This document shows positions 14,951 through 42,356 of a stretch of 42,657 nt of DNA, piece by piece (position 1 is the first letter of the stretch; the number at the start of each line of letters is the position of its first letter). Location of the stretch: NCBI GenBank assembly GCA_945896935.1, contig CAMDER010000001.1, forward strand, positions 1 through 42,657, read 5' to 3'. Made by a program: the position numbers and the translations under genes. The notes beneath the pieces were generated by a model. It was not told the DNA's origin and searched no databases. It worked only from the letters and a program-made list of their open reading frames with translations. The stretch is from Bifidobacterium breve. GTDB taxonomy: Bacteria; Actinomycetota; Acidimicrobiia; Acidimicrobiales; Ilumatobacteraceae.

Positions 14951-14985
14951 GTCACGCTGCCTTTGCAAGATAATTGATGGTGTAC

Positions 14986-18545: not shown

Positions 18546-18557
18546 CAGCAGGTTGGG

Positions 18558-20032: not shown

Positions 20033-21049
20033 ATGGTCAGTGCGGTGAACCACCATTCAATTCGTGTTGCTGTCATCGGGGCAGGATCATGGGGAACAAC
20101 TGTTGCTTGCCTGGCGGCGGCGAACACGTCGACCATTTTGTGGGCCAGACGTTCTGAACTTGCTGATGCCATGACCCGGACCCATCGCAACCCGGATTAT
20201 CTCAGCGATTTCAGCCTGCCCGAGACGCTCGAGTTCACTTCTGATTTGGGACAAGCAGTCAGTGATGCCGATGTGGTCGTGATGGCGGTGCCGTCACACG
20301 GTTTCCGTGCAGTGGTCGCCGAGGTCGCCTGCTTTATTCGTCCGCTGGTGCCCATTGTGAGCTTGTCTAAGGGTTTAGAACGAAGTTCATTGAAACGTAT
20401 GACTGAAGTCGTCGCCGACGAGATGCCAGGTCATCCTGTTGCGGTTCTCACTGGACCGAACTTGGCTCAAGAAATCATGCAGGGTCAACCAGCAGCCGCG
20501 GTTGTGGCGATCAACGACAAAGTGATCGCTGACGAATTACAAAAAATATTCACCCGCCCCACATTACGGGTGTACACCAACCTCGACATCGTTGGTTGTG
20601 AAGTGGCGGGGGTCGTCAAGAACGTCATTGCGATTGCGTCGGGAATGGCGGCAGGTATGGGATTTGGTGACAACACCAGAGCAACGCTGATCACTCGAGG
20701 CCTGGCTGAAATGTCGCGCTTGGGTATGGCGATGGGCGGAGATGGGTACACCTTCGCGGGTCTGGCAGGAATGGGTGACTTAATTGCAACATGTGCCTCA
20801 ACACAAAGTCGTAACAACATGGTGGGACGGCGTCTTGGTGAGGGCGAATCAATCGAAGACATTTTGGAGTCGATGACCATGGTCGCCGAAGGTGTCAAGA
20901 GTTCGCCGGCTGTGCTTGACTTGGCTCGGCGTTATCGCGTTGAAATGCCAATCACTGAACAAGTAGTGGCGGTATGCCACGAAGGACGAAGTGCAGCAGA
21001 TGCAGTTGCGCAACTGATGCAAAGACGACGGAGAAGTGAAATTGGTTAA
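20033..21049 (+). CDS. gpsA: NAD(P)H-dependent glycerol-3-phosphate dehydrogenase
   Basis: IRVAVIGAGSWGTTVA Rossmann motif, then GVVKNVIAIASGMAAG and GDLIATCAS. Start set at ATG 20033; the track ORF begins 59 codons earlier, inside cofC. Confidence 0.95.
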   Translation: MVSAVNHHSIRVAVIGAGSWGTTVACLAAANTSTILWARRSELADAMTRTHRNPDYLSDFSLPETLEFTSDLGQAVSDADVVVMAVPSHGFRAVVAEVACFIRPLVPIVSLSKGLERSSLKRMTEVVADEMPGHPVAVLTGPNLAQEIMQGQPAAAVVAINDKVIADELQKIFTRPTLRVYTNLDIVGCEVAGVVKNVIAIASGMAAGMGFGDNTRATLITRGLAEMSRLGMAMGGDGYTFAGLAGMGDLIATCASTQSRNNMVGRRLGEGESIEDILESMTMVAEGVKSSPAVLDLARRYRVEMPITEQVVAVCHEGRSAADAVAQLMQRRRRSEIG

Positions 21050-22379
21050 GACAGTGATAAATCAAGTGATAAATGAAGTGCCAAAAAAGACAATAGTGCA
21101 AGGTCGAACAATTGGGATTCTTGGTCAAGCGTGGCGGGCTACGGTCACTCCCGCTGGAGATGTCTACCCGTGGGACGACCTTGAAGCCGTGCGTTGGTAT
21201 GTCGCCGCCGATGATCGTTGGCATATTCCTGCCGACGAAGTGGCGGTGCGTCAACGGTCAATTGATGGTGCGCCAGTTCTTGAAACGCGAGTACGAATTC
21301 CGGGTGGAGATGTCATACAACGAGTGTGGGTAGCGACGGGCCGTTTGGGAAGTTCTGCTCTCATGATGGAATTCGAAAATGATTCCCCGATGGCAATCGC
21401 TATTGCCATCGATCGCCATGACCTCCTTGTCTCGAGACCAGTTGCGGTTCGCTCATCGGCCGGAGAATGGCCGGCACCAGGTCTTGACATACCTCGTGAA
21501 CCAACCGTGATACCAGTTGGTCATCGCACAATAGTGCGGGCAGCATTGGCGATCTCTGGGTCAGCAGCAGATCTCAATATCGGCGACTTTGCTGATTATC
21601 TGGCCGTTGCACGCGGGTGGGTTTCATTAAGCGAGCGAGCTTCGCGATTTACCATTGCGGACCTCCGTGACAGTCAACGGGTTGACGAAATGATCGTGGT
21701 TGAACGTAGTGAAATCGCCTTGAATCCTGCTTCATTTAGCGATGCCCCAGATGCGGCCGTGCGTTGGTTGCTAGAAGGGCGCGAGCTGAAGCGAATGGAA
21801 TTGAAAGAGACAGATCTTGTTGAACTGTCTGGAGCGGTCGAGACGATCTCTCGGGCCGCCAAACGCGGACGTATTGCCCAAGCAGATGCGCTGACGGGTT
21901 TCAAGGCCGCGGCGTATTTGCTCGGTATGGCTCAAGAGAGAGCCTTAGTTGACTTAAGAAAAGTTGTCGCCAAAATTGTTGGATCAAAGAAATCAACTTT
22001 GATGAACATGTTGAATACTTATTCGGCTGGCTCGGATGTGAATTTGATTGTCAACGAAATTGAGAACGAATTTGCAGTGATGTCCGATGATGGCGTCATT
22101 ACATTGCTTCCCGGAGGAATGAAGCCCGAGCGCTTGGGCGTTCAGTTCGAGGTTCATGGCATCGCCGTTGGACTCAATCACCGAGTCTCATTTGCGGTGC
22201 GTTGGCACGGACCGAATGCCGCGGTGATCTGGGAAGTAGTCGGTCCCGATGATGTGGAGTTGCGCTCGGGGGTTGACGCGACTTGGTCGTCGAAGAATGC
22301 ATCTGGTGAAGCGTTATGGCGCGTGGAGAATGTTCCAGAGACTGCCTTGGCAGTGAGCGACAACTTGTCATTTTCCTAA
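21036..22379 (+). CDS. Hypothetical protein, about 445 aa, no recognisable domain
   Basis: A long uninterrupted ORF that begins inside the last codons of gpsA. GGAG lies 8 nt before TTG 21042. I recognise no motif. Confidence 0.6.
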   Translation: MKLVKTVINQVINEVPKKTIVQGRTIGILGQAWRATVTPAGDVYPWDDLEAVRWYVAADDRWHIPADEVAVRQRSIDGAPVLETRVRIPGGDVIQRVWVATGRLGSSALMMEFENDSPMAIAIAIDRHDLLVSRPVAVRSSAGEWPAPGLDIPREPTVIPVGHRTIVRAALAISGSAADLNIGDFADYLAVARGWVSLSERASRFTIADLRDSQRVDEMIVVERSEIALNPASFSDAPDAAVRWLLEGRELKRMELKETDLVELSGAVETISRAAKRGRIAQADALTGFKAAAYLLGMAQERALVDLRKVVAKIVGSKKSTLMNMLNTYSAGSDVNLIVNEIENEFAVMSDDGVITLLPGGMKPERLGVQFEVHGIAVGLNHRVSFAVRWHGPNAAVIWEVVGPDDVELRSGVDATWSSKNASGEALWRVENVPETALAVSDNLSFS

Positions 22380-26551: not shown

Positions 26552-27409
26552 GTGGGTAAGGCATCGTCAGCCAAGAAAGTCGCTCGGCTCGCTCAAAAGG
26601 GCAAAGGGCGCAAAGTTCGTTTTCAAGGTGGAACTCTGTTCCCCGCTTTGATCGTGGGTATCGCCGTTGTCGGTGCTGCCCTCATCGTGTATTCGCGGGC
26701 GTCAATTCCAAACCAGAACATTCCGCCAACAGTTGAAGATCACTGGCACGCGTCGTATGGCTTCTACGCCTGCGATGAGTGGTTGCCCGATCTACAGGGC
26801 GTTAAAGAAGAACAAGACTCAGCAGGACAGTTGATCAGCGATGGGTTCCGTCGCACTGGTATTCACAGCCACGACGATGGTGTCATTCACTGGCACCCGT
26901 TTTCGTCCGAAGCCACTGGCCGCAATGCCAAATTTGGCGTATTCCTTGATGTGTACGGAATCAAACTGAGCGATGGCAAACTCGAGCTCCCCGCCGATCA
27001 AGGGGGTGCCGTGTACGAAGAAGGTTCAACTCAGTGCACCGATGCCGATGGGAAGTCGGTTGATGGCGAATTAGTGGTGTACGCCTTTGAGGCATTTGAT
27101 ACGCCCGACAAGTTCACGACCTACATCACGAATTTTGACGATATTCGTTTGACCCAAGACGGCATGGCCTTTGCTGTTGTTTTTGCACCGGCTGGGACCA
27201 AGGCTGAATTGCCACCTTCGGCGGCAGATCTGCCCGAGCTCGGAGCAGCCGATGGCGGCACGACTGGGCAGACCACGACCACGGTTGCTGGTGAAACGAC
27301 TGTTCCTGGTGAAACGACTATTCCTGTTGCAACGACTGGGCCAAGTTCTTCAACGACCACGGCCGCAACAACAGTTGCTCCGGCTGGACCGACCACGACT
27401 GCTGGCTGA
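26552..27409 (+). CDS. Membrane-anchored His-motif protein of unknown function with Thr/Pro-rich tail
   Basis: Basic N-terminus (KKVARLAQKGKGRK) then one TM segment. The ectodomain carries EDHWHASYGFYAC and GIHSHDDGVIHWHPF. The last ~50 aa are T/P/G/A-rich. Its stop overlaps the manC start (TGATG). Confidence 0.65.
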   Translation: MGKASSAKKVARLAQKGKGRKVRFQGGTLFPALIVGIAVVGAALIVYSRASIPNQNIPPTVEDHWHASYGFYACDEWLPDLQGVKEEQDSAGQLISDGFRRTGIHSHDDGVIHWHPFSSEATGRNAKFGVFLDVYGIKLSDGKLELPADQGGAVYEEGSTQCTDADGKSVDGELVVYAFEAFDTPDKFTTYITNFDDIRLTQDGMAFAVVFAPAGTKAELPPSAADLPELGAADGGTTGQTTTTVAGETTVPGETTIPVATTGPSSSTTTAATTVAPAGPTTTAG

Positions 27410-28413
27410 TGCGTGCGGTGGTGTTAGTTGGCGGGTTTGGTACCCGCTTGCGACCACTGACATTGACAACTCCCAAACCGATGTTGCCCGTTGGGCATCG
27501 TCCCATCGTCGAAAATTTGGTGCGGATGTTGGCGGTGGCGGGCATTGACGAGGTCGTCCTTGGTCTCGGATTTAAACCAGAGCCATTCATTGACGCGTTC
27601 CCTGACGGAACGTGTGCTGGAGTTCGGTTGCACTACGCAGTCGAGCCCGAACCACTTGACACCGCAGGAGCGATTCGCTTCGCTGCCGATCACGCGGGGA
27701 TCAACGACACATTCGTGGTCGTTAATGGCGATGTGTTGACCGACCTTGATGTCAGCGCACTGATTGCTTTCCATCGTGCCAAGAACGCTGAAGCAACGAT
27801 CCATCTCACCCCGGTCGATGACCCGTCGGCCTATGGAGTTGTGGCTATTGATTCAGACGGCCGCGTTGAGCGATTTGTCGAAAAGCCTGCACCTGGAACG
27901 GCCCCAAGCAATTTGATCAACGCCGGCACCTACGTGCTCGAACCGTCGGTTTTGCAACGCATCGAACTTGGTCGCAAGGTTTCCATTGAACGTGAAATCT
28001 TTCCGCTGATTGTCGATGACGGGCGTCTCTTTGCCATGGCGACTGACGACTACTGGATTGATACAGGTCGACCCGAGCCCTATCGTCGAGCCAACCTTGA
28101 CATGATCGACGGCGTCCGCCGCAGGTTGTCTGCTTCTGGTATTGAGCCGGGCGCTGAGGTTCATCCGACCGCGCTGATTGAACATAGCTTGGTGTCATCT
28201 GGGGCGGTAGTTGCACCGGGAGCAAGCGTGCATGATTCGGTGATTCTTGCTGGTGCGGTGATCCACAAGGGTGCATTGGTGCGCGACTCAATTGTGATGG
28301 GAACTGTGGGAGAGCGAGCCACGATTATCGACACGGTGGTTGGAGTGGCGGGCGTGATTCCTGAAGGTGCCACGCTTGAACATGCGTTTGTCCCTGACCC
28401 AACTGCCGTTTAG
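27409..28413 (+). CDS. manC: Mannose-1-phosphate guanylyltransferase (NDP-sugar pyrophosphorylase + left-handed beta-helix)
   Basis: MRAVVLVGGFGTRLRPLTLTTPKPMLPV, EKP and the YWIDTG motif, plus C-terminal hexapeptide-like repeats. Confidence 0.85.
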   Translation: MRAVVLVGGFGTRLRPLTLTTPKPMLPVGHRPIVENLVRMLAVAGIDEVVLGLGFKPEPFIDAFPDGTCAGVRLHYAVEPEPLDTAGAIRFAADHAGINDTFVVVNGDVLTDLDVSALIAFHRAKNAEATIHLTPVDDPSAYGVVAIDSDGRVERFVEKPAPGTAPSNLINAGTYVLEPSVLQRIELGRKVSIEREIFPLIVDDGRLFAMATDDYWIDTGRPEPYRRANLDMIDGVRRRLSASGIEPGAEVHPTALIEHSLVSSGAVVAPGASVHDSVILAGAVIHKGALVRDSIVMGTVGERATIIDTVVGVAGVIPEGATLEHAFVPDPTAV

Positions 28414-28422
28414 AGTGCGTTA

Positions 28423-29376
28423 ATGACCCAGCGCAGCGTTGCCAAGCAGCCCGGCGCAGTCATGGTTGTCGGAGGCGCTGGTTTCCTGGGTTCGCACATT
28501 GTTGACCGCTTACTTTTAGATGGCGCACAAGTTGATGTTGTTGATGATTTATCAACTGGTTCTTTAGCGAATCTTTCAGCAGCGCGGTCATCAGCTGTCG
28601 ATGGCGCCTTACGCATCCATACTTTGGATGTCACGATTCCAGAATTTGTCGACGTTGTTCGTCTGCGACGACCTGAAGCGATGTATGTCACTGCATTGTT
28701 GACTCCAACCATGCAGGACTCGGGTGGTTGTACAAAGAGTTACGCAATCGCGATTGCAATATTTGAGGCGGCTGTTCAGGCAAAAGTGAGCAAAGTAATT
28801 GTCGCTATACCGGCTGGCGTTTTGTACGGAGAGGTACCGGCGCGCGACTTGCCCATCAAAGAAGATCGTGAACGTCGCCCCGTAGGTCTACCTGGGGTCA
28901 CAGCTCAGGCGATTATTGAACTATGCGAGATATATCGCCGCGATCATGACATTGAATTCACCGTGTTGGCGCTGCCGATTGTGTACGGGCCTCGTCAGCA
29001 GCCCAATAACAATGTTGTATCAGCATTTGTTGTCGCACAATCAACAGATAACGAGCCAGAAATATTCGGTGACGGAAAACAAACTCGTGATTTTCTGTTT
29101 GTCGATGATGCCGCAGATGCGGCTTCACGGGCATGTGCCAAGGGTGGCGGATTGCTCTTGCATATTGGTACTGGTCAACAAACGAGTGTGAAAGATTTGT
29201 GGGCGCTGATCGGAGAAGGAAGTCCAGCCAACTTTGTGTCAAAACCAACCCATGGTTTGCGGCGGGTTGCGCTGTCGGCGTCACGAGCCCGCCTACATTT
29301 GGGTTGGTCGTCTTGGACATCTTTGGCTGATGGAATCAACCTCACGAAAGCTGGCTCATCAAGTTCGGGTTGTTGA
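28423..29376 (+). CDS. Extended-SDR (NAD-dependent epimerase/dehydratase) homologue lacking catalytic residues
   Basis: An intact Rossmann motif VVGGAGFLGSHIVDRLL and DDLSTG, plus downstream VYGPRQ and GDGKQTRDFLFVDD landmarks. There is no YxxxK anywhere: the expected SPYgxSK position reads LPGVTAQ, and the expected SSS reads IPA. Confidence 0.75.
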   Translation: MTQRSVAKQPGAVMVVGGAGFLGSHIVDRLLLDGAQVDVVDDLSTGSLANLSAARSSAVDGALRIHTLDVTIPEFVDVVRLRRPEAMYVTALLTPTMQDSGGCTKSYAIAIAIFEAAVQAKVSKVIVAIPAGVLYGEVPARDLPIKEDRERRPVGLPGVTAQAIIELCEIYRRDHDIEFTVLALPIVYGPRQQPNNNVVSAFVVAQSTDNEPEIFGDGKQTRDFLFVDDAADAASRACAKGGGLLLHIGTGQQTSVKDLWALIGEGSPANFVSKPTHGLRRVALSASRARLHLGWSSWTSLADGINLTKAGSSSSGC

Positions 29377-29396: not shown

Positions 29397-30128
29397 CTAG
29401 CGGAATAGATCTTCTTGTGGTGGTCGGACAATTTCGCTGATTGAAGATTCACGCAACCACGACGGATCCAAGCCACGCACAACAGCAACAGGCACTCCGT
29501 TTGATTTGCCCATCACCAATTCGGCGGCCGAAGCGACTTCGTCGGCAATAGAAACCTCAGTGACCTGCATCATGCGCCCTAGGGCATCGGGAGTTCCGCG
29601 GAGGTCAAGAACTCCAGCAACGCCGGCGACACCAATAGCGACATCGGTGAGTCCTTTGCGCCAGGGTCGACCAAAAGTGTCAGAAATAATGATTCCAACG
29701 GAGACTCCAAGTTTGGCGCGAATAATGTCGCGAATTCTTCGGGCCGAACGATCGCTGTCAATGGGCAACAAGGCAGCCCAGCCACGTTCAACATTGGATA
29801 AGTCAATTCCGCTGTTAGCGCAGATAAATCCGTGTCGTGTTTCGGTAATGATGAGGTCGCCTCGACGTCGAACAACTCGCACTCCTTCTTCCTCGACAAG
29901 AGCCTTGTGAGAGAGCGGATCATCGGGGTCAATTTGTACCATGCGACCTTCGGCCTTTGACACAATTTTTTGCGTGACGACGAGAACGTCTCCGTCGAGG
30001 AGCGGTCCGTTGGGGGCTGCTTGACACGCATCAACGACGATGTCACCGAGTTGGTCACCTGGCACGATTTCGCCAATGCCCGTGACACCCCAAGCGGTCA
30101 TTCGGAGTTGTTGATTCTGTTCGCTCAT
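29397..30128 (-). CDS. cofE: Coenzyme F420-0:L-glutamate ligase, single-domain CofE
   Basis: 243 aa. GDVLVVTQKIVSKAEGR, ICANSGID and ISDTFGRPWR motifs. There is no C-terminal nitroreductase-like domain; the stop lies 20 nt from a convergent gene. Confidence 0.85.
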   Translation of the reverse strand: MSEQNQQLRMTAWGVTGIGEIVPGDQLGDIVVDACQAAPNGPLLDGDVLVVTQKIVSKAEGRMVQIDPDDPLSHKALVEEEGVRVVRRRGDLIITETRHGFICANSGIDLSNVERGWAALLPIDSDRSARRIRDIIRAKLGVSVGIIISDTFGRPWRKGLTDVAIGVAGVAGVLDLRGTPDALGRMMQVTEVSIADEVASAAELVMGKSNGVPVAVVRGLDPSWLRESSISEIVRPPQEDLFR

Positions 30129-30136
30129 GGTGCTCC

Positions 30137-31093
30137 TTATTTGACTGCTTGTAGAACTTTACGGGCAAGTACTTGAGTGATCTGCGGTGTTCGCATAATC
30201 GTGTCGGCAACGACGCATTTCATACCTTCGCGTTCGACCGCACTTTGCAGGGCTTCGTCTTGTTGATCAATCACCAAGGTAGAGCAAATTGGAGCATAGA
30301 TTCGTGCGACTCCAACAACGGAGGCTTCATGACCAAGTTCAACAAGCATGCGATCAGCGGGGCCTTTGAGGGCCGACCCAGCAACGATGGGAGAAATCGC
30401 GACGACGCGATCGCGGTTGAACGTGAGGGCGGCATCGACTCCGGAAAGTGCGCGGATCGGTCCGAGAGAAACAATTGGATTTGATGGGGCAATGATGATC
30501 GCTTCAGAGGTGTGCAAATTATTGATAAAGGTTGGCTGTGCAGTTGTTGCACCGACAAACTCAACACCTGTTACTGGGACGCTGTGTCGACGTTGGACAA
30601 AATATTCCTGGAAAGAAATCGTTGAGGCAACACCATTTTCAAAGATGTCTACTTTGGTGGCAACTTGATCATCCGACATCGGCATCATGTTGAACGCAAG
30701 TCCCCATGCTCGAGCAATCTCTTGGGTGACTGTAGAAAGTGTTGCGCCTTCGGCAATTCGGGCGGTTCGATACAAGTGAGTTGCAAGATCTCGATCACCC
30801 AAGTTGAACCAGGTTCCAGCGGCAGTTGAGCTGTCGGGTTTGACATCTTGATAGCGCGCCAGTGATTCCATCACGCGCCACGATTCATTGGCGAGACCCC
30901 AACCCCGCTCGGGGTCGATGGCATCAGCGACGGTGTATGTCACGGTGTCGAGATCGGGCGAAATATTGAGGCCGTGCATGATTGTGTCATCACCCGTATT
31001 GACGACGACGGAAATAGTGGTGGGGTCGACTTCGAGCACGAGGCCACGTAAGAAACGAGCAGCACCGACGCCACCTGCCAGGACAGTAATCAT
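30137..31093 (-). CDS. cofD: 2-phospho-L-lactate transferase (F420 biosynthesis)
   Basis: MITVLAGGVGAARFLRGL, VVNTGDD and GLNISPDLDTVTY. ATG 31093 gives the conserved N-terminus; the track starts at TTG 31114. Confidence 0.9.
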   Translation of the reverse strand: MITVLAGGVGAARFLRGLVLEVDPTTISVVVNTGDDTIMHGLNISPDLDTVTYTVADAIDPERGWGLANESWRVMESLARYQDVKPDSSTAAGTWFNLGDRDLATHLYRTARIAEGATLSTVTQEIARAWGLAFNMMPMSDDQVATKVDIFENGVASTISFQEYFVQRRHSVPVTGVEFVGATTAQPTFINNLHTSEAIIIAPSNPIVSLGPIRALSGVDAALTFNRDRVVAISPIVAGSALKGPADRMLVELGHEASVVGVARIYAPICSTLVIDQQDEALQSAVEREGMKCVVADTIMRTPQITQVLARKVLQAVK

Positions 31094-31117
31094 GCTTCCA
31101 TTATTCCGTTTCAACCG

Positions 31118-32209
31118 CTATTTCACGAGGTCAGTGTAAAGATTGATCAACTGTTGGGCCGATTTGTCCCACGAGAACTTGCTGTACTGAGCAACAGCGG
31201 CTTGTTGAAGCTGTTGTCGAAGGTCAGAGTCGTTCACAACTTTGGTGATGGCTTTGGCTAAGGCATCGACATCAAGTGGATCAACGAGTAGTGCAGCCGA
31301 TCCAACTACTTCAGGAATTGAACCACGGGTAGAACCGACGATGGGAAGTTGTTCAGACATCGCCTCAAGCAAAGGGAAACCAAACCCTTCGTCAAGTGAC
31401 GGGTAAGCCATCGCAGTCGCGTGTTGATACAACCAGGCAATATTTTCGTCGGTGACACGGCCGATGAGGTGAATGCGCTGGGCAATTTCCTTGGGCAGCA
31501 ATTCAAGAGATTGAATTATCTCTGATGAGTCATCTCCGGCAGATCCAGCAATCACTAATTGAAGTTCGGGGATTTCTTGCTTGGCAACAGCGAAGGCTTC
31601 GATGAGGCGGCAGTAGTTCTTGCGCTTTTCGAGTGTTCCTACGGCCACGATAAAAGGTGCTGTGCCGATAGCGGTGAGAGCTGTTGGTTGAAGACTTGTC
31701 TCAATATTGCGACGGGGTGGAGCACCTAAGTGAATCATCTCAATACGGGCGTGCGGAAATAGTTCTTGCAAGGTCAAAGTTGTGGCGTGTGACGACGCAT
31801 GGATCACGGCACCAGTCTGAACAGAGCGCCGAAGTGCATTCATTGAATGCTGAATCACAGGTGAGCATTGGGTCGGGTTGAGAAGCGCCCAGCAGTCGTA
31901 CACCGTGACGAGTCGGGGCAGTTTTGTCGGTGGAACGACGTAATTCATTCCGTGCAGAATTTGTACGTGTGGCAGATGGCGGTCAGCTGAAGGAAAATCG
32001 CGTTGGCCCCAACTCTGAATAGTGATTCCGGCAGGAAAGGGGAGTCGTCGCGTCTGCGCGTGCAACTTGGCGCGAAAGCTCAGCACATATTCAGTGAGTT
32101 CAACTTCGTCAACATGGCGACGCAATTGGTATACCAAACCCTCAACCGCACGGCCAACGCCAGTCATCGGACCATGGAGCGGGCCAGTATCGACCGCCAC
32201 TTTGATCAC
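31118..32209 (-). CDS. Glycosyltransferase family 4
   Basis: VGTLEKRKN and the EX7E motif PSLDEGFGFPLLEAMSEQLPIV. It sits directly upstream of cofD on the same strand. Confidence 0.85.
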   Translation of the reverse strand: MIKVAVDTGPLHGPMTGVGRAVEGLVYQLRRHVDEVELTEYVLSFRAKLHAQTRRLPFPAGITIQSWGQRDFPSADRHLPHVQILHGMNYVVPPTKLPRLVTVYDCWALLNPTQCSPVIQHSMNALRRSVQTGAVIHASSHATTLTLQELFPHARIEMIHLGAPPRRNIETSLQPTALTAIGTAPFIVAVGTLEKRKNYCRLIEAFAVAKQEIPELQLVIAGSAGDDSSEIIQSLELLPKEIAQRIHLIGRVTDENIAWLYQHATAMAYPSLDEGFGFPLLEAMSEQLPIVGSTRGSIPEVVGSAALLVDPLDVDALAKAITKVVNDSDLRQQLQQAAVAQYSKFSWDKSAQQLINLYTDLVK

Positions 32210-32313: not shown

Positions 32314-33309
32314 ATGCCCCGAGCGTTTATCACTGGTGTTACTGGTCAAGACGGCCAGCACATGGCTGAATTTTTGCATAGCAAAGGCTACGAAATCTTT
32401 GGCATGGTCAAAGGGCAGAACAACCCTAAAGGCGACATGCTTCGTGACGAGTTTCCGTATGTGAACATCGTGCCTGGCGATCTCGCCGACTTGCCATCGT
32501 TGGTGAAGGCAATGGAAGTTGCCCAACCAGATGAGATCTACAACCTTGCCGCCATTTCGTTTGTTGCATTGTCATGGAATCAAGCCGAATTGACGGCCAA
32601 TCTGACTGGAACGGGCGTCTTGCGTATGCTCGAGGCGATGCGCATGGTGGGCGGCAATACCAACAACAAGATTCGCTTTTATCAAGCCTCGTCCTCAGAG
32701 ATGTTTGGCAAGGTCCGCGAGATTCCGCAGACCGAACTCACACCGTTTCACCCCCGCTCGCCGTATGGCTGCGCCAAGGTTTTTGGCCATGACATCACGG
32801 TGAACTACCGCGAGAGTTACGACATGTGGGCCTGCTCGGGAATTTTGTTTAACCACGAAGGTCCTCGCCGGGGAGTTGAGTTCGTTACTCGCAAAGTGAC
32901 AAATGCAGCGGCTCGTATCAAACTCGGACTCCAATCAGAGCTAGTGCTGGGCAACCTTGATGCAAAACGCGACTGGGGATACGCCGGCGATTACGTCAAA
33001 GCAATGTGGATGATGCTCCAACAAGATGAGCCCGATGATTACGTCATCGCAACCGGAGAAACTCACACCATCGAAGAACTCGTCGAACTTGCATTCCAAG
33101 AAGCAGGAATTGGCGATTGGCGTCCTTACGTTCGTCAAGACCCGAAGTTTTTCCGCCCAGCTGAAGTTGATTTGCTCATTGGTGATTCAAGTAAGGCTCG
33201 CGAAAAACTCGGTTGGAAGCCTGAAGTTGACTTCCCAAGTTTGGTACGCATGATGGTGCAACACGATCTCAAACTCGAAGCCAAGAAGGCCGGTATTGCT
33301 CTCGCCTAA
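32314..33309 (+). CDS. gmd: GDP-mannose 4,6-dehydratase
   Basis: [46 protein letters not shown] (intact YxxxK) and [17 protein letters not shown] lies 6 nt upstream. Confidence 0.95.
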
Positions 33310-34791: not shown

Positions 34792-37700
34792 GTGGAAAAC
34801 GAGATGGAATCAACTCTGTCTGCGGCAACGTCGTCATCTGAAACCAGCGGGCTGGGCGCCCCAGGGGTCGTGGTGGCCATTGTCGTTGACCGACCAACAT
34901 CGACCTTGGAAGGGGTCTTGGCAGCCGTTGTCGCCCAGGACTATCCCAATATCCAAGTTTTGGTGTTGTTGACTGGCTCCGAGGTTGACGAATATGCGCT
35001 CGTGAACGACATAGCTCAGACCGCGTTTGCCACTACTAATATCCCGCAACCTCATATCTATCAACTTGGGGCCAACCCAGGATTCGGACTCGCGGCGAAT
35101 ACGGCTCTGCGCCTTGTCGAGGGCGACAGCGGTTTTTTCTTGGTGATGCACGACGACGTGGTTCTGGCTGCAGATTCGGTGCGGATTCTCGTCGAAGAGT
35201 TGTATCGCTCAAATGCCGGAATGGTCGGTCCGAAGTTTGTCGAATGGGAAGAAACTCGGCGATTGCAGGCGGTTGGATTTGATTGCGATTGGTTTGGCGA
35301 ACTTGATAGCGATGTTGAGCCACACGAACTTGATCAGGAACAACATGATGCGGTTCGCGATGTTTTTGTCCTGCCCTCGGCCTGCTTTTTAATTCGTGCC
35401 GACCTCTTTCGTGAACTCGGTGGTTTTGAACCCACCATCGAATTCTTCGGCGAAGACCTTGACCTGTGTTGGCGGGCCCACAAGTCGGGGGCCCGAGTCG
35501 TTGTTGTGCCGGCCGCGACGGTACGCCATCAAGCGGCAATCATGCCGCGTTTGGCCAGTCGTCATCGTGAATCGGTAGCACTTGCCCGTCAAGCCGAACG
35601 GCATCGAATCACCACGGTCGCCTCATTGACTGGAGCGCGTCGTTTGCCGATTGTGCTTCCTCTTCTCGTTCTGCTTTCTCTCTTCGAAGCAATCGGGGCA
35701 TTAGTTCGAGGACGATGGCAGCGGGCTATCGCAGTGCTGGGCGGTTTATTCAGCCTTGTCACAAATATTGGCAATATTGCTCGGCGTCGTTCGCGAGTTC
35801 GCCTACTGCGTCGAGTACCAGACCACGAAGTCGTTGAGCTACAGGTGCGGGGAAGCGTGCGTTGGAAACGCATGATTCGCCATCGCCGGTTTGCCCCATC
35901 GATGAATTTCAGAACTCAAGGGAATGCATCGCGCGAGCGAAACTCGTGGGTCATGACGGCGTGGGTCGTACTTGCTGTCCTCTTGTTCCTCGGTGGTCGC
36001 CAATTGTGGAGCAACGGCGTTCGCTCAGTTGGAGACTTATTGCCATTACCCGAGTCGCCGCGTGATTTGTTGCATCAGTATTTAAGTGGTTGGTGGGCTC
36101 AAGATCTTGGAAGTACAACTGCCCAACCAACGAGTACCGGTCTCATTGCCCTCGGTGGAGTGATCACTCTTGGGCACATGGGTCTTTTGCATACCTTGAT
36201 CACCATTGGGTTGATCCCCATTGGTTGGCTGGGCGTTTCAGCGTTGTGCGCTGTCGTTGCTCATGAACGAGCTCGCATTGTTGGCGTCATCGCTTACGCC
36301 GCGGTTCCTCTTCCGTATGCCGCAGTTGCGAGTGGTCGACATCAGGTACTGATTGCCTATGCAGTTGTTCCATGGGCGTTGCACCTCATCCGGTCTTTCG
36401 GTGGCATCGGTCGTTCCATTGTCGATGATGAACCAGGCGACGTCGTTGACCATCCGTCAACCAAACAGAGAATTCGTCTTGCAGCCAAGCTTTCATTGCT
36501 CTTTGGCGTGACGTTGGCGTTTAGCCCAAGTGTTGTCTTTGTTGTCTTATTGAGTGCTTTGTTGTGGCTGCTGACTGCGGCGATTTCGGGCGGTTCGACG
36601 CGAGCGGCTGGTTTGGGATTTGCGGGCGCTATCAGTGCAACGGCGGCGGCAGTTGTTCTCAACATGCCCTGGATCACTCGCTACTTATCGCATGATGGAT
36701 GGAGCGCGATTGTTGGTGCGCCAACTCACACTCCAGAAAATCTCGGATTGTGGGATGTCTTACGCTTCGGAATCGGTCCGGCGGCACTCGGTGGACTCAT
36801 CGTGTTGCTGTACGTGCCTCTACTCGTTGCACCTTTGGTATCAAAGAACTCGCGATTTATTTGGGCTTCACGAGCGGCAATTTTGTCAATAGTCTCTGTC
36901 TCTTTGGCGGTGTTGAATTCTGGCAACCATCTTCCATTCCGCCTTCCTGAAACTGGAATTCTGTTGGCACCAGTAGCGAGTTGTATGGCTATTGGCGCAG
37001 CCATCATTGTGATGGCATTTGGTATTGATGTGCGTGGTGGTCGCTTTGGCTGGCGCCAACCTTTGGCGCTGTTGTCACTCGTGACTCTTCCGCTCGGATT
37101 GTTGCCCGTTGTTGCCGCATCATCCAATGGGCAGTGGGAACAGCCATCAATTACTTTGGCGCAGCAAATGAAAGAGTTGCTCGGTGATACGAGTCAAGGT
37201 AGTTATCGGGTTCTAGTTATTGGTGATCCTCGCTTGGTGACATCGGATCAACATCCTTACGACGATGGATTGGCCTATGCCGTTGTGCAAAACGGTGATA
37301 TGACCATGGTGAACCAGGTGTCATCGATGCCTGACGACACCGATAATTTGATTCGACCTTTACTTGATGCCGTCGCGATGGGATCAACGAATCGGGTCGG
37401 AAGATTGATGGCTCCTCTTGGTATTCGCTACATCGTCATACCGTTATTTGATCGAGTTCGTTCAACGAGTGACTCGCCTTTGCCTTTGCCACTTGGTCTT
37501 CGTGAAGCCTTTGCTGAACAACTGGATTTTCGCAATGTCTACGGCCCGTCAAGCATGGTGATTTTTGAGAATTCGCAATGGATACCACTGACAGGGATGC
37601 TCAGTGCTGTGGCTGCACAACAAAGTAGTGAAGGTGGATCCGAGGCGTTGGTGGCAACCGAACTGACGGGTTCGCTCGCGGCCTTGAATGGCGTGAAAAG

Positions 37701-38049
37701 TTGGTCAAGTCCGACTCAAGAATTGCCGGCTGGTCGATTCCATATGGGAGTTCCGTTTGATTCTCGATGGACTCTGTCGATTGGCGGTCAGTCCATCCAA
37801 CCCCAAGCATCCTTCGGAACAGTGATGCATTACGAAACAGGTGTTGGCGGGCTTGCTCAATTGAATTACTCCAACCCACTGAGTCGCTATCTGTGGGTCG
37901 TCATGCAACTGTTGTTGTGGGCCATTGTCATCGTCGGGATATTGCAACCAAACTGGCGCCGTCGTCAAGCTCGTCAACAATTTGCTGTACCCGAAATGCA
38001 GCCGGTTGTTTCTTTGTCGGGCAACAATTCAGAAACGGTTGAATCATGA
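34792..38049 (+). CDS. Fusion protein: N-terminal GT2 (GT-A) glycosyltransferase + large polytopic membrane domain + extracytoplasmic domain + terminal TM segment (1085 aa)
   Basis: The GT-A part has VVAIVVDRP, VAQDYPNIQVLVL, FFLVMHDDVVL and FFGEDLDLCWRAHKSGARVVVVP. Many hydrophobic segments follow over aa ~290-770. Next comes a hydrophilic stretch of ~260 aa, then a last TM segment YLWVVMQLLLWAIVIVGIL followed by RRRQARQQ. Confidence 0.85.
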   Translation: MENEMESTLSAATSSSETSGLGAPGVVVAIVVDRPTSTLEGVLAAVVAQDYPNIQVLVLLTGSEVDEYALVNDIAQTAFATTNIPQPHIYQLGANPGFGLAANTALRLVEGDSGFFLVMHDDVVLAADSVRILVEELYRSNAGMVGPKFVEWEETRRLQAVGFDCDWFGELDSDVEPHELDQEQHDAVRDVFVLPSACFLIRADLFRELGGFEPTIEFFGEDLDLCWRAHKSGARVVVVPAATVRHQAAIMPRLASRHRESVALARQAERHRITTVASLTGARRLPIVLPLLVLLSLFEAIGALVRGRWQRAIAVLGGLFSLVTNIGNIARRRSRVRLLRRVPDHEVVELQVRGSVRWKRMIRHRRFAPSMNFRTQGNASRERNSWVMTAWVVLAVLLFLGGRQLWSNGVRSVGDLLPLPESPRDLLHQYLSGWWAQDLGSTTAQPTSTGLIALGGVITLGHMGLLHTLITIGLIPIGWLGVSALCAVVAHERARIVGVIAYAAVPLPYAAVASGRHQVLIAYAVVPWALHLIRSFGGIGRSIVDDEPGDVVDHPSTKQRIRLAAKLSLLFGVTLAFSPSVVFVVLLSALLWLLTAAISGGSTRAAGLGFAGAISATAAAVVLNMPWITRYLSHDGWSAIVGAPTHTPENLGLWDVLRFGIGPAALGGLIVLLYVPLLVAPLVSKNSRFIWASRAAILSIVSVSLAVLNSGNHLPFRLPETGILLAPVASCMAIGAAIIVMAFGIDVRGGRFGWRQPLALLSLVTLPLGLLPVVAASSNGQWEQPSITLAQQMKELLGDTSQGSYRVLVIGDPRLVTSDQHPYDDGLAYAVVQNGDMTMVNQVSSMPDDTDNLIRPLLDAVAMGSTNRVGRLMAPLGIRYIVIPLFDRVRSTSDSPLPLPLGLREAFAEQLDFRNVYGPSSMVIFENSQWIPLTGMLSAVAAQQSSEGGSEALVATELTGSLAALNGVKSWSSPTQELPAGRFHMGVPFDSRWTLSIGGQSIQPQASFGTVMHYETGVGGLAQLNYSNPLSRYLWVVMQLLLWAIVIVGILQPNWRRRQARQQFAVPEMQPVVSLSGNNSETVES

Positions 38050-39497
38050 ATCGGCGAATCGGTTTGTATGTTGCTCTTATATTGATTGTCGGATTAGCAA
38101 TTAACTTTTCAGGCGAATCGAGCAATACAAGCGATGCGGTGTTCTCTAATTCGGTATTGCCAGGTACGCCCGCAATTATGCGGAACGACCAATCGGTGAC
38201 GAACACTTGGTTTTGCGCAGGAACTTCGGCGGCAGGAGAAAGCGACAACGGCACGTACGGTGGCGAAGTTGTTATCTCTAATCCGCTGAAAACTCCAGTG
38301 ACTGGTTTATTGACAATTTTGACGAGTGATCAAGCGCCAATCACCCAAGCGATTAACGCTGAACCCCGCTCGCAACTAGTGATAGACATCAACTCATTGG
38401 TTGTAGCCCCGTATGCAAGTGCTTTCGTTGAACTCAATGATTCGGCAGCCAGCGTTGAGCAACGGGCTTTGCATCCTGCTGGTGCAGCGGTTTCTCCTTG
38501 CGCGAATCAAACATCTGATCAGTGGTATTTCGCTGATGGATTTTCGGCTGAGTCATCAGACTTTCGATTGATCTTGACGAATCCGTACTTGTCGCCAGCG
38601 ATTGTCAATATTGAGGTTGCAACTAAAAATGGTGAACGTACGCCGACGAATCTTCAAGGATTTGTTGTTCCCGCTGAATCAATTCGAGTTCTGAACATTC
38701 CCGAATCTGGATTTCGAGATGAGGAGATTTTGGCCATAAGCGTTGTTGCCTCATCTGGTCGAATCGTGGCAGCAAAAGATCAGCACTACTTAGGTGCGGG
38801 ACGCCTCGGTCATGTCTTGACTTTGGGGAGTCCATCAACATCAGATCAGTGGTGGTTTGCTGATGGCGAAAAGGGCGCGGGCATCTCCGAAACGTACATG
38901 ATCTATAATCCAACCGATCAAGATGCCTTGGCAGATGTCGTGATTCTTGGCCTCGACCCGGCATTCGCATCAATACAGCCGACAACTTTGACGATCCCTG
39001 CTCACGATGTCGTCCCATTTGATGTTTCAGCAATTGTGGGGTTGCTCGATGGGCCTCACGGGGGAGCAGTCAGCGGTCAGGCGGGTGCGCAGTTAGTCGT
39101 TGAGCGCATACTGACCAAGCCGGCTGGTACGAGTGTGGCGACGACTGCAGTACTTGGAGTTCAACGAGGTTTTCAATCCATGCGGTGGAGCGTTCCAACT
39201 TCAACAACGATTGCGATTGAAGATGTATTAATTGTTCTCAATACATCGCCCACTGATGGAGTTGTCACTGTCTACTCGGTAGGACCAGGTGGTGAAGAAC
39301 CAGTTGCTGGTCTGAGCGATATCCCCATTGCTGCCAACGGTTTGCTATCGATTGACTTGGTCGATCCGTTGTCGTTTGGACGTGAACTAGAAGTCGTGAG
39401 TGATCAGTTGATTCTGGTCGAGCGGCGACTTGAACGAACCCCAACTTTGCGTGGGCGAAGTGGTTCATTGGCTTTTCCTGAAATGCCGGCATCGTGA
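38046..39497 (+). CDS. DUF5719-like signal-anchored protein with four ~105-aa repeat modules
   Basis: ATGA overlap with the upstream stop. N-terminal anchor RRIGLYVALILIVGLAI. Module openers are WFCAGT (aa 55), WYFADG (aa 160), WWFADG (aa 269) and RWSVPT (~aa 380). Each is followed by a VVISNP / LILTNP / MIYNPT / IVLNTS strand. Confidence 0.7.
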   Translation: MNRRIGLYVALILIVGLAINFSGESSNTSDAVFSNSVLPGTPAIMRNDQSVTNTWFCAGTSAAGESDNGTYGGEVVISNPLKTPVTGLLTILTSDQAPITQAINAEPRSQLVIDINSLVVAPYASAFVELNDSAASVEQRALHPAGAAVSPCANQTSDQWYFADGFSAESSDFRLILTNPYLSPAIVNIEVATKNGERTPTNLQGFVVPAESIRVLNIPESGFRDEEILAISVVASSGRIVAAKDQHYLGAGRLGHVLTLGSPSTSDQWWFADGEKGAGISETYMIYNPTDQDALADVVILGLDPAFASIQPTTLTIPAHDVVPFDVSAIVGLLDGPHGGAVSGQAGAQLVVERILTKPAGTSVATTAVLGVQRGFQSMRWSVPTSTTIAIEDVLIVLNTSPTDGVVTVYSVGPGGEEPVAGLSDIPIAANGLLSIDLVDPLSFGRELEVVSDQLILVERRLERTPTLRGRSGSLAFPEMPAS

Positions 39498-39958
39498 CCA
39501 GTGTGGTTATTGCTCTAGTCATTGGTGCCGTTGTGGTAGTAGCGGCAATGGTTATTCGACAAAGGCGCGTTGTTGATGCTCCAACGCAAAAAGTTTTTTC
39601 TGCTCCAACTCAGATTGACCGAACTGACTTTCCAACTTCCCAACACGAGTGGATGATTGCGGTGTTTACCTCGGCGACCTGTCACGCATGCGCAGATATG
39701 TTGGCGAAGGCTCAAGTTGTAGCCAGCAAGAATGTGTCAGTTATTGAAATTGAATATTCCAACAAAAAGGATTTGCACCGCAAATACAACATTGAGGCAG
39801 TGCCGACGGTGGTGGTGACTGATGTTCACGGCATCGTTCATAAGTCATTTCTTGGGCCAGTGAGTGCGACTGATTTATGGGCAGGAATTGCGTCGGTTCG
39901 TGACCCGCAACTGCATGCTGCAACTGATGGGCATTGTCAAAATCACGATCACGATTAA
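39494..39958 (+). CDS. Membrane-anchored thioredoxin-fold protein (CxxC = CHAC)
   Basis: GTGA overlap with the upstream stop. One TM segment (VVIALVIGAVVVVAAMVI). WMIAVFTSATCHACADM plus a downstream AVPTVVV (cis-Pro position) fit a thioredoxin-like fold. Confidence 0.55.
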   Translation: MTSVVIALVIGAVVVVAAMVIRQRRVVDAPTQKVFSAPTQIDRTDFPTSQHEWMIAVFTSATCHACADMLAKAQVVASKNVSVIEIEYSNKKDLHRKYNIEAVPTVVVTDVHGIVHKSFLGPVSATDLWAGIASVRDPQLHAATDGHCQNHDHD

Positions 39959-39981: not shown

Positions 39982-42024
39982 TCAGTCGTTGACGCTCACT
40001 GGAGACTGTGCCGTACCGTCAAGACCTTGTTGCACTAATGCATTGACAAGGTCGCCGTCAATCGTTTCTTTTTCAAGCAGTGCTTGAGCAACGAGGTCAA
40101 GGCCGATGCGGTGCTTGGTCAGTAGTTCAGTTGCCCGAACTTCTTGTTTGCGCAAAATGGCGTTGATTTCCTCATCCATCAAACGGGCGGTGTCGTCGCT
40201 GTATTCACGACCACCAGTCATGAGATCTTCACCAAGGAAGACATTTTGTTGATTGTGCCAAGCCATCGGGCCGACCTTGTCACTCATACCCCACTCGCGC
40301 ACCATGCGACGAGCAAGGCCAGTGACTACTTCGAGGTCGTTTGAAGCTCCGGTCGTTTGCTGCTGGAAAACGAGATCTTCGGCGACGCGTCCACCGAGCG
40401 CCATACAGATGCGATCAAGGATGTAGTCCTTGGAGAAGCTGTGGCGCTCTTCGGGAAGTGTTTGGGTGACTCCGAGGGCCATACCACGGGGAAGAATTGT
40501 GACCTTGTGTAACGCGTCTCCATGTGGCAACACCGTTGCTAAAATTGCATGGCCACCTTCGTGGTATGCCGTGACGCGTTTTTCTTCAGCAGACAAAATA
40601 AGTGAGTCGCGACGGGCCCCCATCATGATGCGATCTCTGGCCGACTCAAAGTCGATGCGCTCAATTTGAGCGCTGGCTCGACGAACTGCGAACAGTGCTG
40701 CCTCATTCACCAAGTTGGCGAGGTCGGCACCACTCATACCAGGAGTTCCCTTGGCCATCGTGTCGAGGTCAACATCGGGTCCCATGCGCTTATCGCGGCT
40801 ATGCACACGCAAGATTGCCGCGCGCTCTTCAAACTCGGGGAGCGGAACCACGATCTGACGATCAAAACGACCAGGACGAAGCAATGCTGGGTCGAGTACA
40901 TCGGGTCGGTTGGTGGCCGCCAAAATGACGATGCCTTCGGAAGTTTCAAACCCGTCCATCTCGGACAGCATTTGGTTCAGGGTTTGCTCACGCTCGTCGT
41001 GACCTCCGCCAAGACCGGCTCCACGCTTGCGACCAATCGAGTCAATTTCGTCAATGAAAATGATGGCTTTACCCATCTTGCGGGCCTGCTGGAATAAGTC
41101 GCGGACGCGGCTGGCACCAACACCGACAAACATTTCCATGAAGTCAGAGCCGGTGACTGACAAGAAGCCAACACCAGCTTCTCCCGCAACGGCTCGGGCA
41201 AACAATGTCTTGCCAGTTCCTGGCGGACCAACAAGCAACATTCCCTTCGGAACTTTGGCACCAATTTCTTTGAAACGTTCGGGCATGCGCAAGAAATCGA
41301 CGACTTCTTTGATTTCTGTTTTGACGCCTTCGTAGCCAGCGATGTCGGCGAAAGTCGTTGATGGACGACTGGCGTCGTAGGCCTTGGCACGACTGCGACC
41401 AATTGACATCATGTTGCCCATTTGCCCAGAGGCTCGTTTATTCATCCACATCAAAAAGCCGATGATCAAAATGAATGGCAACAAGAGAGGAATGAGATTC
41501 ATGACCCAATTTGATTGGGGAGTACTCGGCTTGAAATCGACACCTTGAGTTCGCAGCAACTCACGGTCGAGTTCGTTGGGGAATCCAGGAGGAGCGGTCG
41601 TTGAAAAAGAACTGCCATCAGTGAATGTTCCGGTGATGGTCAGTGTTGCGTTATTCAACTTGACTTCATCAACCTTGCCACTGGTGACCTGCGTGATGAA
41701 TTCTTCAAAACCCAATTTCTCACGATCGGGACTAGGAAGAAGTTGCGGTCCGAAAATCAGCACCAAGATCAGACCAAGCAGTACCCACGGTGACCACTTG
41801 GGCATCGAGGGACGTCCAGAGGGTTTGCCGTCTGGACTTGGACTGTCTTTGGGCGATTGCGAGCGACCCAACTTGCGACTGGGGCTATTGCTCGACGGTG
41901 ACGCGGGCGATGGTGGCGGAGGGGGAGGAGTGGGCTCGCTCATTCCGCCATGATACGACCGAGTAGCGACACTCGGAGTGTCGGGCACCGTTGAGTTTGG
42001 GCGTCTCGGCGTCTGAGAAGTCAC
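39982..42024 (-). CDS. ftsH: ATP-dependent zinc metalloprotease FtsH
   Basis: Two TM segments, Walker A GPPGTGKT, Walker [33 protein letters not shown] and zinc site HEGGHA. It has a Pro/Ser-rich N-terminal extension of ~85 aa. The GTG start at 42024 is uncertain. Confidence 0.95.
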
Positions 42025-42128: not shown

Positions 42129-42356
42129 ATGCGTTCGTGCACTCGTAGTGGCTGTCGGGAGACCGCCCACATTTCTCTCACGTTTCAGTACAACACATCG
42201 GTGATTTGGATTAACCACATCCAAGATGAAAGAGATATGCACGTCTACGAATTGTGTGACAAGCATTGGCAACGTTTTGCCCCGCCGAATGGCTGGACTC
42301 TTGATGATCGGCGTCGGGCCGAAGTCCTTCCTTTCGTACATCGCTTGGCTGGCTAA
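42129..42356 (+). CDS. DUF3499-family small protein (Rv3258c-like)
   Basis: MRSCTRSGCRETAHISLTFQYNTS...YELCDKHWQRFAPPNGWTLDDRR fits the C-x4-C ... LC-x2-H ... P-x-GW pattern of DUF3499. Confidence 0.75.
   Translation: MRSCTRSGCRETAHISLTFQYNTSVIWINHIQDERDMHVYELCDKHWQRFAPPNGWTLDDRRRAEVLPFVHRLAG

Follow-up and report, generated by a model that had tools for sequence, protein, structure and literature searches.

The DNA analysed here, a 42,657-nucleotide stretch of contig CAMDER010000001.1 (assembly GCA_945896935.1; hereafter the window), carries three chained genes, termed P1, P2, and P3, whose products we predict to be a conserved cell-envelope glycan module of Acidimicrobiia. Judged by its sequence and a structural model, P1 is a fusion of a cytoplasmic GT-A glycosyltransferase (GT) of family GT2 with a membrane-embedded GT-C glycosyltransferase; P2 is a membrane-anchored DUF5719 protein, and P3 is a membrane-anchored protein with a CxxC thioredoxin fold. 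The explanation that best accounts for the whole, and that we hold with roughly even confidence, is that P1 acts as a two-sided glycosyltransferase on a polyprenyl-linked envelope-glycan pathway with P2 and P3 as its partners.

The membrane part of P1 was modelled with AlphaFold over amino acids (aa) 262–1085 from an alignment of 74 family members, giving a mean predicted local distance difference test score (pLDDT) of 87.5 and a predicted template modelling score (pTM) of 0.85. When this model was compared with the Protein Data Bank (PDB) by use of Foldseek, the matches at ranks 1–22 were all GT-C enzymes (probability 0.99–1.00, E = 3.8e-9 to 1e-2), with AftD the best (3.8e-9), then archaeal AglB (9e-6), STT3 of yeast and human (2e-5), AftA (4e-5), and ArnT (7e-5), and with DPY19, PglB, PimE, and Pmt4 also in the list; the first matches outside this superfamily were unrelated transporters with a probability of 0.33 or less. 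Cellulose, hyaluronan, chitin, and poly-N-acetylglucosamine (PNAG) synthases were absent from the PDB matches, and P1 contains no QxxRW motif, whether sought as Q..RW or as [QR]..RW. Because a GT2 domain is joined to a membrane part with only GT-C structural matches, no synthase match, and no QxxRW, we conclude from the model that P1 is a GT-A/GT-C fusion and that its membrane part adopts the GT-C glycosyltransferase fold and not that of a synthase channel. The first-pass annotation of this stretch, made from the letters alone, had taken P1 to be a synthase-type polymerase and exporter, which these comparisons do not support; it had also named a GT-C enzyme as the other candidate for the membrane part, and this is the choice to which AlphaFold and Foldseek point.

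The likeness to AftD is one of fold and architecture only. Pfam detected no family in P1 aa 262–1085 even at E = 10, the AftD family included, and sequence and profile searches of P1, P2, and P4 (the divergent neighbor described below) against PDB sequences returned no significant match. NCBIfam gave no match for the GT-C-only segments of the window copy and nine others. Among 40 P1 relatives, five matched PgfM1 and seven matched PgfM2, weakly, with E down to 3.5e-5; the outside domain of some relatives likewise matched the C-terminus of PgfM2 weakly (best 5.7e-5, with no match for the window copy), and in the three relatives inspected the PgfM2 match was limited to this C-terminal outside domain and scored 14–19 bits against a cut-off of 1500. 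By its sequence, the GT-C module belongs to a family that no library covers. A match of the membrane domain to a characterised family, which the first-pass annotation had set against its own proposal of an uncharacterised machine, was found at the level of the fold superfamily and not in the form of a characterised orthologue.

Hydropathy and the AlphaFold model agree with the earlier description of P1 as a series of hydrophobic segments followed by a hydrophilic domain, a last transmembrane (TM) segment, and a basic tail. Immediately after the GT2 domain, in a GtrB/ArnC-like arrangement, lie the two hairpin helices (aa 285–305 and 309–330; residues 24–44 and 48–78 of the model), and the model has a low-confidence segment at its residues 91–120. 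Conserved residues of the hairpin and linker are R332, R333, R340, E346, and R363, and those of the TM core are R403, E/D/Q415, W434, E720, and the motif D746-VRGGRFGWRQP. The hydrophilic domain comprises 249 aa (aa 780–1028) with invariant D812, R868, R879, D912, and E926, and no WWDxG-type motif occurs in it. Because of the positive-inside pattern of the conserved arginines, P1 is consistent with a topology in which the GT2 domain is inside, followed by the hairpin, a basic loop inside, the 11-helix core, the C-terminal domain outside, and the tail inside. At the outer face, the GT-C module would use a polyprenyl-phosphate or polyprenyl-diphosphate donor.

The GT2 domain was identified by Pfam models PF13641 (5.9e-15, 56.3 bits, cut-off 27) and PF00535 (1.8e-10, 41.5 bits, cut-off 23.3), both matching P1 aa 24–257. 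The GT-A motifs picked out in the first-pass annotation are in place: HDD at aa 120–122 and EDLD at aa 221–224 within FFGEDLDLCWR (EDLDLCWR at aa 221–228). In an alignment of 40 homologues, D121, D122, and D224 were at least 90% conserved, and together with C226, W227, and R228 they are invariant or nearly so. When NCBIfam profiles were run against 40 family members (E ≤ 0.01), MftF was matched by 33 (best 2e-20), and the other matches were to PgaC, EpsD, an arsenosugar glycosyltransferase, a rhamnosyltransferase, AglG, and GlfT1; window P1 itself matched the MftF profile with 6.8e-16 over the catalytic domain and the TM hairpin. The PgaC/NodC profile matches scored ∼19–24 bits against cut-offs above 400. 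The ArnC, PgfS, AglJ, Dol-P-hexose, and PpgS models were matched by none of the 40. As an internal control, the window encodes a separate 253-aa GT2 that does match polyprenyl-phosphate sugar synthase models; BLAST detected no similarity between this protein and the GT2 domain of P1, and its order of scores (PF00535 above PF13641) is the reverse of that in P1. Because the P1 family lacks the polyprenyl-phosphate synthase matches that this control has, the P1 GT2 domain leans toward glycan extension on a lipid carrier (WbbL/GlfT1-like) over donor synthesis, a lean drawn from sequence and not a proof. Two cysteines of the domain, C198 (window 35383–35385, in the motif PSAC) and C226 (window 35467–35469, in EDLDLCWR), are near-invariant and stand beside its acceptor and catalytic motifs.

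P1, P2, and P3 are real genes and not chance open reading frames (ORFs), because P1 has more than 2462 homologues in 90% clusters, nearly all of full length (∼1030–1170 aa), and P2 has 493. The closest P1 homologues are 1081 aa long, 4 aa shorter than the longest ORF in the window (GTG at 34792), so that translation probably begins at the ATG at 34804. The genes overlap by 4 nt each, as ATGA between P1 and P2 and as GTGA between P2 and P3, exactly where the first-pass annotation had placed them. A genome scan, in which each species was represented by a single genome, detected at least 279 relatives, of which the best 80 loci were examined; all 80 are from Acidimicrobiia metagenome-assembled genomes, and their P1 identities range from 89% down to 29%. 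In every one of the 66 loci with at least 2.2 kb of sequence downstream of P1, P2 follows P1 directly and P3 comes after it on the same strand with the order kept. Four loci with less downstream sequence also carry P2; of the resulting 70, 66 offer a start codon that overlaps the P1 stop by 4 nt. The trio is a co-conserved, co-oriented unit, as had been anticipated. Its second junction is looser, with a 4-nt overlap in 26 loci and spacings from −50 to +66 nt elsewhere; P3 is less tightly coupled than P2 also in that several loci (L025, L041, L046, L054, L059, and L062) have it 0.9–3.4 kb downstream of P2, with space for another gene. The distant Acidimicrobiia loci L081–L083 keep the large GT2 protein, DUF5719, thioredoxin, FtsH, and DUF3499. 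Counts of internal promoters and terminators within the trio were not above those of shuffled sequence.

P2 matched PF18986 (DUF5719) with 2.8e-20 and 73.1 bits (cut-off 26.2). It begins with a double arginine and TM anchor (aa 1–25), followed by a linker of fixed length (28–29 aa). The AlphaFold model, built from 56 sequences (pLDDT 92.2), showed an N-terminal helix and then an all-beta chain of four modules. The four-module layout predicted in the first-pass annotation is borne out by this model, whereas the W-x-x-A-x-G opening that it assigned to every module is clean in modules 2 and 3 only, module 1 having WFCAG and module 4 WSVP. Invariant residues occupy equivalent places in the modules (W55/W160/W270/W381 and N79/N179/N288/N399). 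Sequence similarity between modules was significant only for modules 2 and 3 (z = 8.2) and 1 and 3 (z = 4.5). Single modules matched TM1070 (1nc7) in Foldseek with 1.4e-5 and a TM-score on the target of 0.78 (up to 0.8 among the matches), as well as the Anabaena sensory rhodopsin transducer (2ii7), and the corresponding family, ASRT (PF07100), was present in some P2 homologues; the whole chain gave macroglobulin-like arrays with low probability. Modules 2 and 3, as modelled, are an ASRT/TM1070-like dyad, and the suggestion of a beta-sandwich array outside the membrane fits both the all-beta model and these matches. C57 and C152 are invariant; C57 is the first cysteine of P2, lies in a beta-strand with pLDDT above 90 about 30 aa past the anchor, and no lipobox cysteine occurs near the end of the hydrophobic segment (LAINFSGESS). 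A C57–C152 disulfide is more likely than a lipobox role for C57. We rejected P2 as an O-glycosylated substrate via a Ser/Thr-rich disordered linker, given the fixed 28–29 aa and a Ser/Thr content of 0.21 versus 0.16. Rv3256c was also ruled out as a mycobacterial DUF5719 homologue, as it is a SIS-domain protein (PMC8562490).

The class to which P2 belongs was described in silico in 2009 by De Souza, Iyer, and Aravind (PMC2739507), who report an actinobacterial secreted family with an ASRT-like dyad and conserved N- and C-terminal extensions, predict from context that this ASRAH-dyad surface protein family binds sugar, and predict a lipoprotein with a lipobox cysteine. By their account, the gene is tightly linked to those for a glycosyltransferase, a WhiB regulator, and an inactive zincin, and in Frankia CcI3 the ASRAH dyad is fused to the glycosyltransferase. 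Such a fusion is topologically compatible with our assignment because P1 would end inside and P2 would begin with an in-to-out helix. Distribution beyond Acidimicrobiia comes from that study; the 150 best-scoring representatives for the DUF5719 profile all fell within Acidimicrobiales, as did the relatives reached by a further homology walk that began at P0345. The recurrence of a glycosyltransferase beside a DUF5719-type protein near whiB in actinobacteria, mentioned in the first-pass annotation, is documented in silico by the same study (PMC2739507).

P3 is, as first proposed, a single-TM protein with a thioredoxin fold and the sequence CHAC (aa 63–66, nt 39680–39691); its match to PF00085 is just above the cut-off (25.7 bits versus 23.5). 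Comparison of 69 homologues showed CxxC in every one, with middle residues that vary, and the TM helix is followed by RRRR and then a conserved DAPTQ motif (RRRR-DAPTQ). The mean number of K and R residues rises from 0.19 before the helix to 3.31 after it (68 homologues), and the same charge pattern is found in the distant loci. Because this is a positive-inside pattern, the thioredoxin domain is predicted to face the cytoplasm, which speaks against the envelope-side redox partner that had been imagined for P1. The near-invariant C198 and C226 of the GT2 domain together with a co-conserved cytoplasmic thioredoxin could, as pure speculation, form a redox switch.

Table 1. Positions of the trio, its predicted parts, and neighboring genes in the window
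Feature	Position	Strand	Description
P1	34792..38049	+	1085 aa, GTG start; predicted GT2 (GT-A) + GT-C fusion glycosyltransferase
GT2 catalytic domain, P1 aa 24–257	34861..35562	+	PF13641, PF00535
TM hairpin aa 282–330 and basic linker aa 331–382 (16 K/R)	35635..35937	+	hydropathy, AlphaFold
Predicted GT-C TM core, P1 aa 383–779, ∼11 helices	35938..37128	+	AlphaFold, Foldseek
Predicted extracytoplasmic alpha/beta + beta-sandwich domain, P1 aa 780–1028	37129..37875	+	model secondary structure
Last TM helix and basic tail RRRQAR, P1 aa 1029–1085	37876..38046	+	hydropathy, AlphaFold
P2	38046..39497	+	483 aa, ATG start; membrane-anchored DUF5719 protein
P2 beta-sandwich modules (predicted)	aa 45–149, 150–258, 259–369, 370–483	+	AlphaFold
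P3	39494..39958	+	154 aa, GTG start; N-terminal TM anchor + CxxC thioredoxin fold
P4	33323..34663	−	446-aa polytopic membrane protein, divergent; ∼12–14 hydrophobic segments; putative member of a MurJ/Wzx-like (MOP) flippase family
ManC-like guanylyltransferase	27409–28413	+	9.6e-87
Short-chain dehydrogenase/reductase (SDR) epimerase/reductase	28423–29376	+	syntenic
CofE	29397–30128	−	syntenic
CofD	30137–31114	−	syntenic
GT4	31118–32209	−	syntenic
GDP-mannose 4,6-dehydratase (Gmd)	32314–33309	+	418 bits, above equivalog cut-off
FtsH	39982–42024	−	converges on P3, 23-nt gap
DUF3499	42129–42356	+	after FtsH, as in L081–L083
WhiB	14636–14968		20 kb from trio
253-aa GT2	5661–6422	+	polyprenyl-phosphate sugar synthase type; PF00535 98 bits; matches PgfS, ArnC, AglJ, Dol-P-hexose transferase, PpgS

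The divergent neighbor of P1, P4, adjoins it in most loci with enough upstream sequence. The window copy had no Pfam match at E ≤ 0.1, and 20 of 28 syntenic relatives (50–76% identical) matched the MurJ model PF03023 (best 7.2e-10); through the matches of these relatives, P4 is a putative member of a MurJ/Wzx-like flippase family, in keeping with its earlier description as Wzx-like. Also as described earlier, genes for GDP-mannose and 6-deoxyhexose are adjacent: in loci that reach far enough upstream, the order is ManC, SDR reductase, CofE, CofD, GT4, Gmd, and then P4 on the opposite strand, so that ManC, SDR, and Gmd are both present and syntenic. On the other side, FtsH and P3 are neighbors also in most of the related loci with sufficient downstream sequence. 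The gene for the 253-aa GT2 is immediately followed by one for an L,D-transpeptidase that carries a peptidoglycan-binding domain (6462–7568, +); the GT2 could supply lipid-phosphate sugar donors for GT-C enzymes, a link to P1 that we infer only.

Several further features of the region were noted. Two proteins of the glycan cluster, of 285 aa (26552–27409, +) and 447 aa (21036–22379, +), have no Pfam or NCBIfam family, and relatives of the 285-aa gene stand upstream of ManC in many related loci. The F420 genes cofC, cofD, and cofE are interleaved with glycan genes. Window 12031–13949 holds two paired WYL/WCX-domain genes, of which the second has a PafC-type helix-turn-helix domain (PafBC-like), and the region of 15184–16623 and 17766–19990 encodes a PIN-PhoH ATPase, a mycothiol-type MDMPI_N protein, a PIG-L deacetylase, and CofC; together with WhiB, these genes are typical actinobacterial housekeeping context. 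Next to manB in the distant loci (15585–19219 in L081, 15347–19029 in L082 and L083), a gene for an 812–830-aa protein overlaps one for a 397–398-aa GtrA+GT2 fusion. The L081 copy of the larger protein matches PF10131 (PTPS_related), the L082 and L083 copies have no recorded Pfam match, and the pair may be a second, separate GT2/flippase set near the trio that has a large partner protein of its own. Seven loci with the same synteny (L009, L010, L019, L048, L050, L051, and L057) come from bins titled "uncultured Bifidobacterium sp." or "Bifidobacterium breve"; as they carry the acidimicrobial locus, these bins are probably mislabelled.

In the mechanism that we propose, the GT2 domain of P1 would lengthen a lipid-linked glycan on the cytoplasmic side of the membrane with sugar from a nucleotide donor, which probably comes from the products of the adjacent ManC, Gmd, and reductase genes (GDP-mannose and 6-deoxyhexose). 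P4 would flip the lipid-linked intermediate, and at the outer face the GT-C module would add a sugar from a polyprenyl-phosphate donor to the flipped glycan or to another acceptor. That donor could come from a separate ArnC/Dpm1-type GT2, such as the 253-aa protein. P2 would be made in fixed proportion through translational coupling and would most likely dock on the GT-C module to hold the glycan acceptor or product. P3, whose part in this is the least clear, may act through C198 and C226 to control whether the GT2 domain is oxidised or reduced. One polypeptide would in this way compress the logic of mycobacterial arabinogalactan assembly, with a WbbL/GlfT-type GT2 inside and an AftA/AftD-type GT-C outside. 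The series of GT-A enzyme, flippase, and GT-C enzyme is established in streptococci (PMC11754754, PMC12041528).

A number of points weigh against this mechanism. The GT-C active site is a predicted position and catalysis by it is putative. GT-C enzymes usually have a catalytic acidic residue in the first outside loop. At P1 position 415, assessed in 74 sequences of the membrane core, E occurs 39 times, D 19 times, and Q 15 times, so that 78% of the sequences have an acidic residue and 20% have Q; at positions 421 and 425, the acidic share is ∼60%. E720 is acidic in 97%, and D746, in the motif DVRGGRFGWRQP, is the sole invariant acidic residue of the TM core (100%), yet both lie outside the first loop and D746 is predicted to be on the cytoplasmic side. 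The MftF, rhamnosyltransferase, EpsD, and GlfT1-type matches of the GT2 domain are far below their curated cut-offs (for MftF, 54–58 bits versus 280). The donor, acceptor, and product of P1 are predictions from sequence and model, and the candidate donor synthase is encoded 29 kb from the trio. P4 does not accompany the trio in the distant loci L081–L083, so that it is not obligatory. That P1 and P2 touch is suggested by two observations, their coupling and the fusion reported in Frankia, and the placement of P3 by one, the positive-inside rule.

The evidence just described also bears on other ways of reading P1. In one that we regard as unlikely, the enzyme would supply itself: the GT2 domain and its hairpin would make a polyprenyl-phosphate sugar in the manner of GtrB, ArnC, or CsbB, which would be flipped and then used by the fused GT-C on a wall polymer or protein. 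Fused domains usually catalyse neighboring steps, enzymes of the GtrB/ArnC type likewise have a TM hairpin after their GT-A domain, the GT-C module resembles users of monophosphate donors (AftD, AftA, and ArnT, with the weak matches to YfhO-type PgfM2), and the three-component mechanism is well established (PMC11754754). Against this stand the 40 P1 members, none of which matches a polyprenyl-phosphate GT model when the 253-aa GT2 of the window matches five, and the opposite ranking of PF13641 and PF00535 in the two proteins; the conserved flippase, moreover, is MurJ/Wzx-like, a carrier of diphosphate-linked oligosaccharides, and not GtrA-like, and distant relatives have a separate GtrA-GT2 fusion nearby. 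A second reading, which seems to us very unlikely, makes the GT-C module resemble an oligosaccharyltransferase or polymerase: GT4 enzymes and the P1 GT2 domain would build a diphosphate-linked oligosaccharide, P4 would flip it, and the GT-C module would either polymerise it or transfer it as a whole to a protein, which might be P2 itself or one of the S-layer. In its favor, the leading structural matches include AglB, STT3, and PglB; synteny extends to a MOP flippase and several GT4 genes; P2 is translated together with P1 and anchored in the membrane; and in streptococci YfhO-type relatives glycosylate membrane-associated proteins (PMC12041528). However, the best structural match is AftD and not an oligosaccharyltransferase, the outside C-terminal domain has no WWDxG-type motif, and the P2 linker, in its fixed length and its Ser/Thr content, is unlike a glycosylated disordered region; the ASRT-like dyad of P2 would suit binding better than the role of a substrate.

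The synthase idea of the first-pass annotation, by which P1 would polymerise a glycan and export it through its own channel as cellulose, hyaluronan, or PNAG synthases do, has become scarcely credible. It draws on the fusion of a GT2 domain to many TM helices and on the weak PgaC/NodC matches, which are far below the cut-offs; the significant Foldseek matches are all to GT-C enzymes and none to a synthase, QxxRW is lacking, the hairpin and a disordered basic linker of ∼50 aa separate the GT2 domain from the main TM bundle, and the large outside domain with a terminal TM helix is typical of AftD and YfhO-type GT-C enzymes. A bolder extension of the two-sided glycosyltransferase, which we consider quite unlikely, would make the trio a new type of trans-membrane glycan assembly unit. 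One polypeptide would carry out both transfers on the same lipid-linked intermediate and might help to move it across the membrane, a stoichiometric ASRT-dyad subunit would hold the growing glycan, and a dedicated cytoplasmic thioredoxin would switch the GT2 domain on or off through its two cysteines. Its genes lie in the cell-division neighborhood of whiB, DUF3499, and manB, and what it makes would be a conserved and so far undescribed glycopolymer in the wall of non-mycolate Actinomycetota.

The trio is strictly conserved over deep divergence in a class, the Acidimicrobiia (abundant freshwater and marine lineages and Microthrix-like filaments), whose envelope is almost uncharted, and little more is known of the wall glycopolymers of many non-mycolate actinobacteria. 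In mycobacteria, linkage-unit and mannose-donor genes presumably lie in the same chromosomal neighborhood as the trio does here. A cytoplasmic thioredoxin, as predicted for P3, is an unusual partner for an envelope enzyme. Both folds of P1 were already known, as was, in silico, the pairing of a glycosyltransferase with DUF5719 (passages of PMC2739507). New are the recognition of the glycosyltransferase as a predicted GT-A/GT-C fusion, AftD-like in architecture and with a GT-C part whose sequence family is absent from every library; the thioredoxin, which is strictly co-conserved and predicted to face the cytoplasm; the MurJ-like neighbor; and the quantitative data on synteny and coupling. The statement of the first-pass annotation that it knew of no experimental work accords with our search of the literature on DUF5719, ASRAH, and GT-A/GT-C fusions, which found none.

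Among known systems, the ASRAH-dyad protein and P2 (the former now Pfam DUF5719) have the same architecture and a tight glycosyltransferase linkage (PMC2739507). In our window, whiB and DUF3499 lie in the same region as the trio, whiB being 20 kb away. The study predicts a lipobox cysteine that P2 does not match, and its passages on the family mention neither a thioredoxin gene nor that the glycosyltransferase is of the GT-C kind. The inactive zincin of that context was not seen in the window, where no search aimed at zincin was made. Recognition of an AftD-like GT-C turns the 2009 prediction of an unknown glycosyltransferase with a sugar-binding protein into a concrete two-step hypothesis.

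For the GT2 domain, the nearest profile matches are MftF, WbbL-type rhamnosyltransferases, and GlfT1, which act on aglycone or lipid-diphosphate-glycan acceptors and, unlike P1, are not fused to a GT-C enzyme; an EDxDLxxR-type motif looks to us to be common to them and P1. The three-component systems SccN/SccM, PgfS/PgfM1/PgfM2, GtrB/PgtC2, CsbB/YfhO, and ArnC/ArnT pair, as we propose for P1, a GT2 step inside the cell with a GT-C step on the outer side of the membrane (PMC11754754, PMC12041528), and among them PgfM2 is a YfhO-type GT-C enzyme of streptococcal protein glycosylation (PMC12041528). P1 differs from them in having the two folds in one polypeptide; its GT2 domain does not match the polyprenyl-phosphate synthase clade, its putative partner flippase is MurJ/Wzx-like and not GtrA-like, and those systems include no DUF5719 or thioredoxin partner. 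We take the final arrangement of an outside domain plus TM helix to be common to P1 and YfhO-family proteins. The closest structural counterpart of P1 aa 262–1085 is AftD (PDB 6w98; E = 3.8e-9 over ∼845 alignment columns), which like AftA (8if8) is a GT-C enzyme of mycobacterial arabinogalactan and lipoarabinomannan synthesis. P1 is much smaller than AftD, is 12% identical to it, and has an N-terminal GT2 domain that AftD and AftA lack; the three have in common a GT-C TM core, a large outside domain, and one or more C-terminal TM helices, and all would be envelope-glycan enzymes of actinobacteria.

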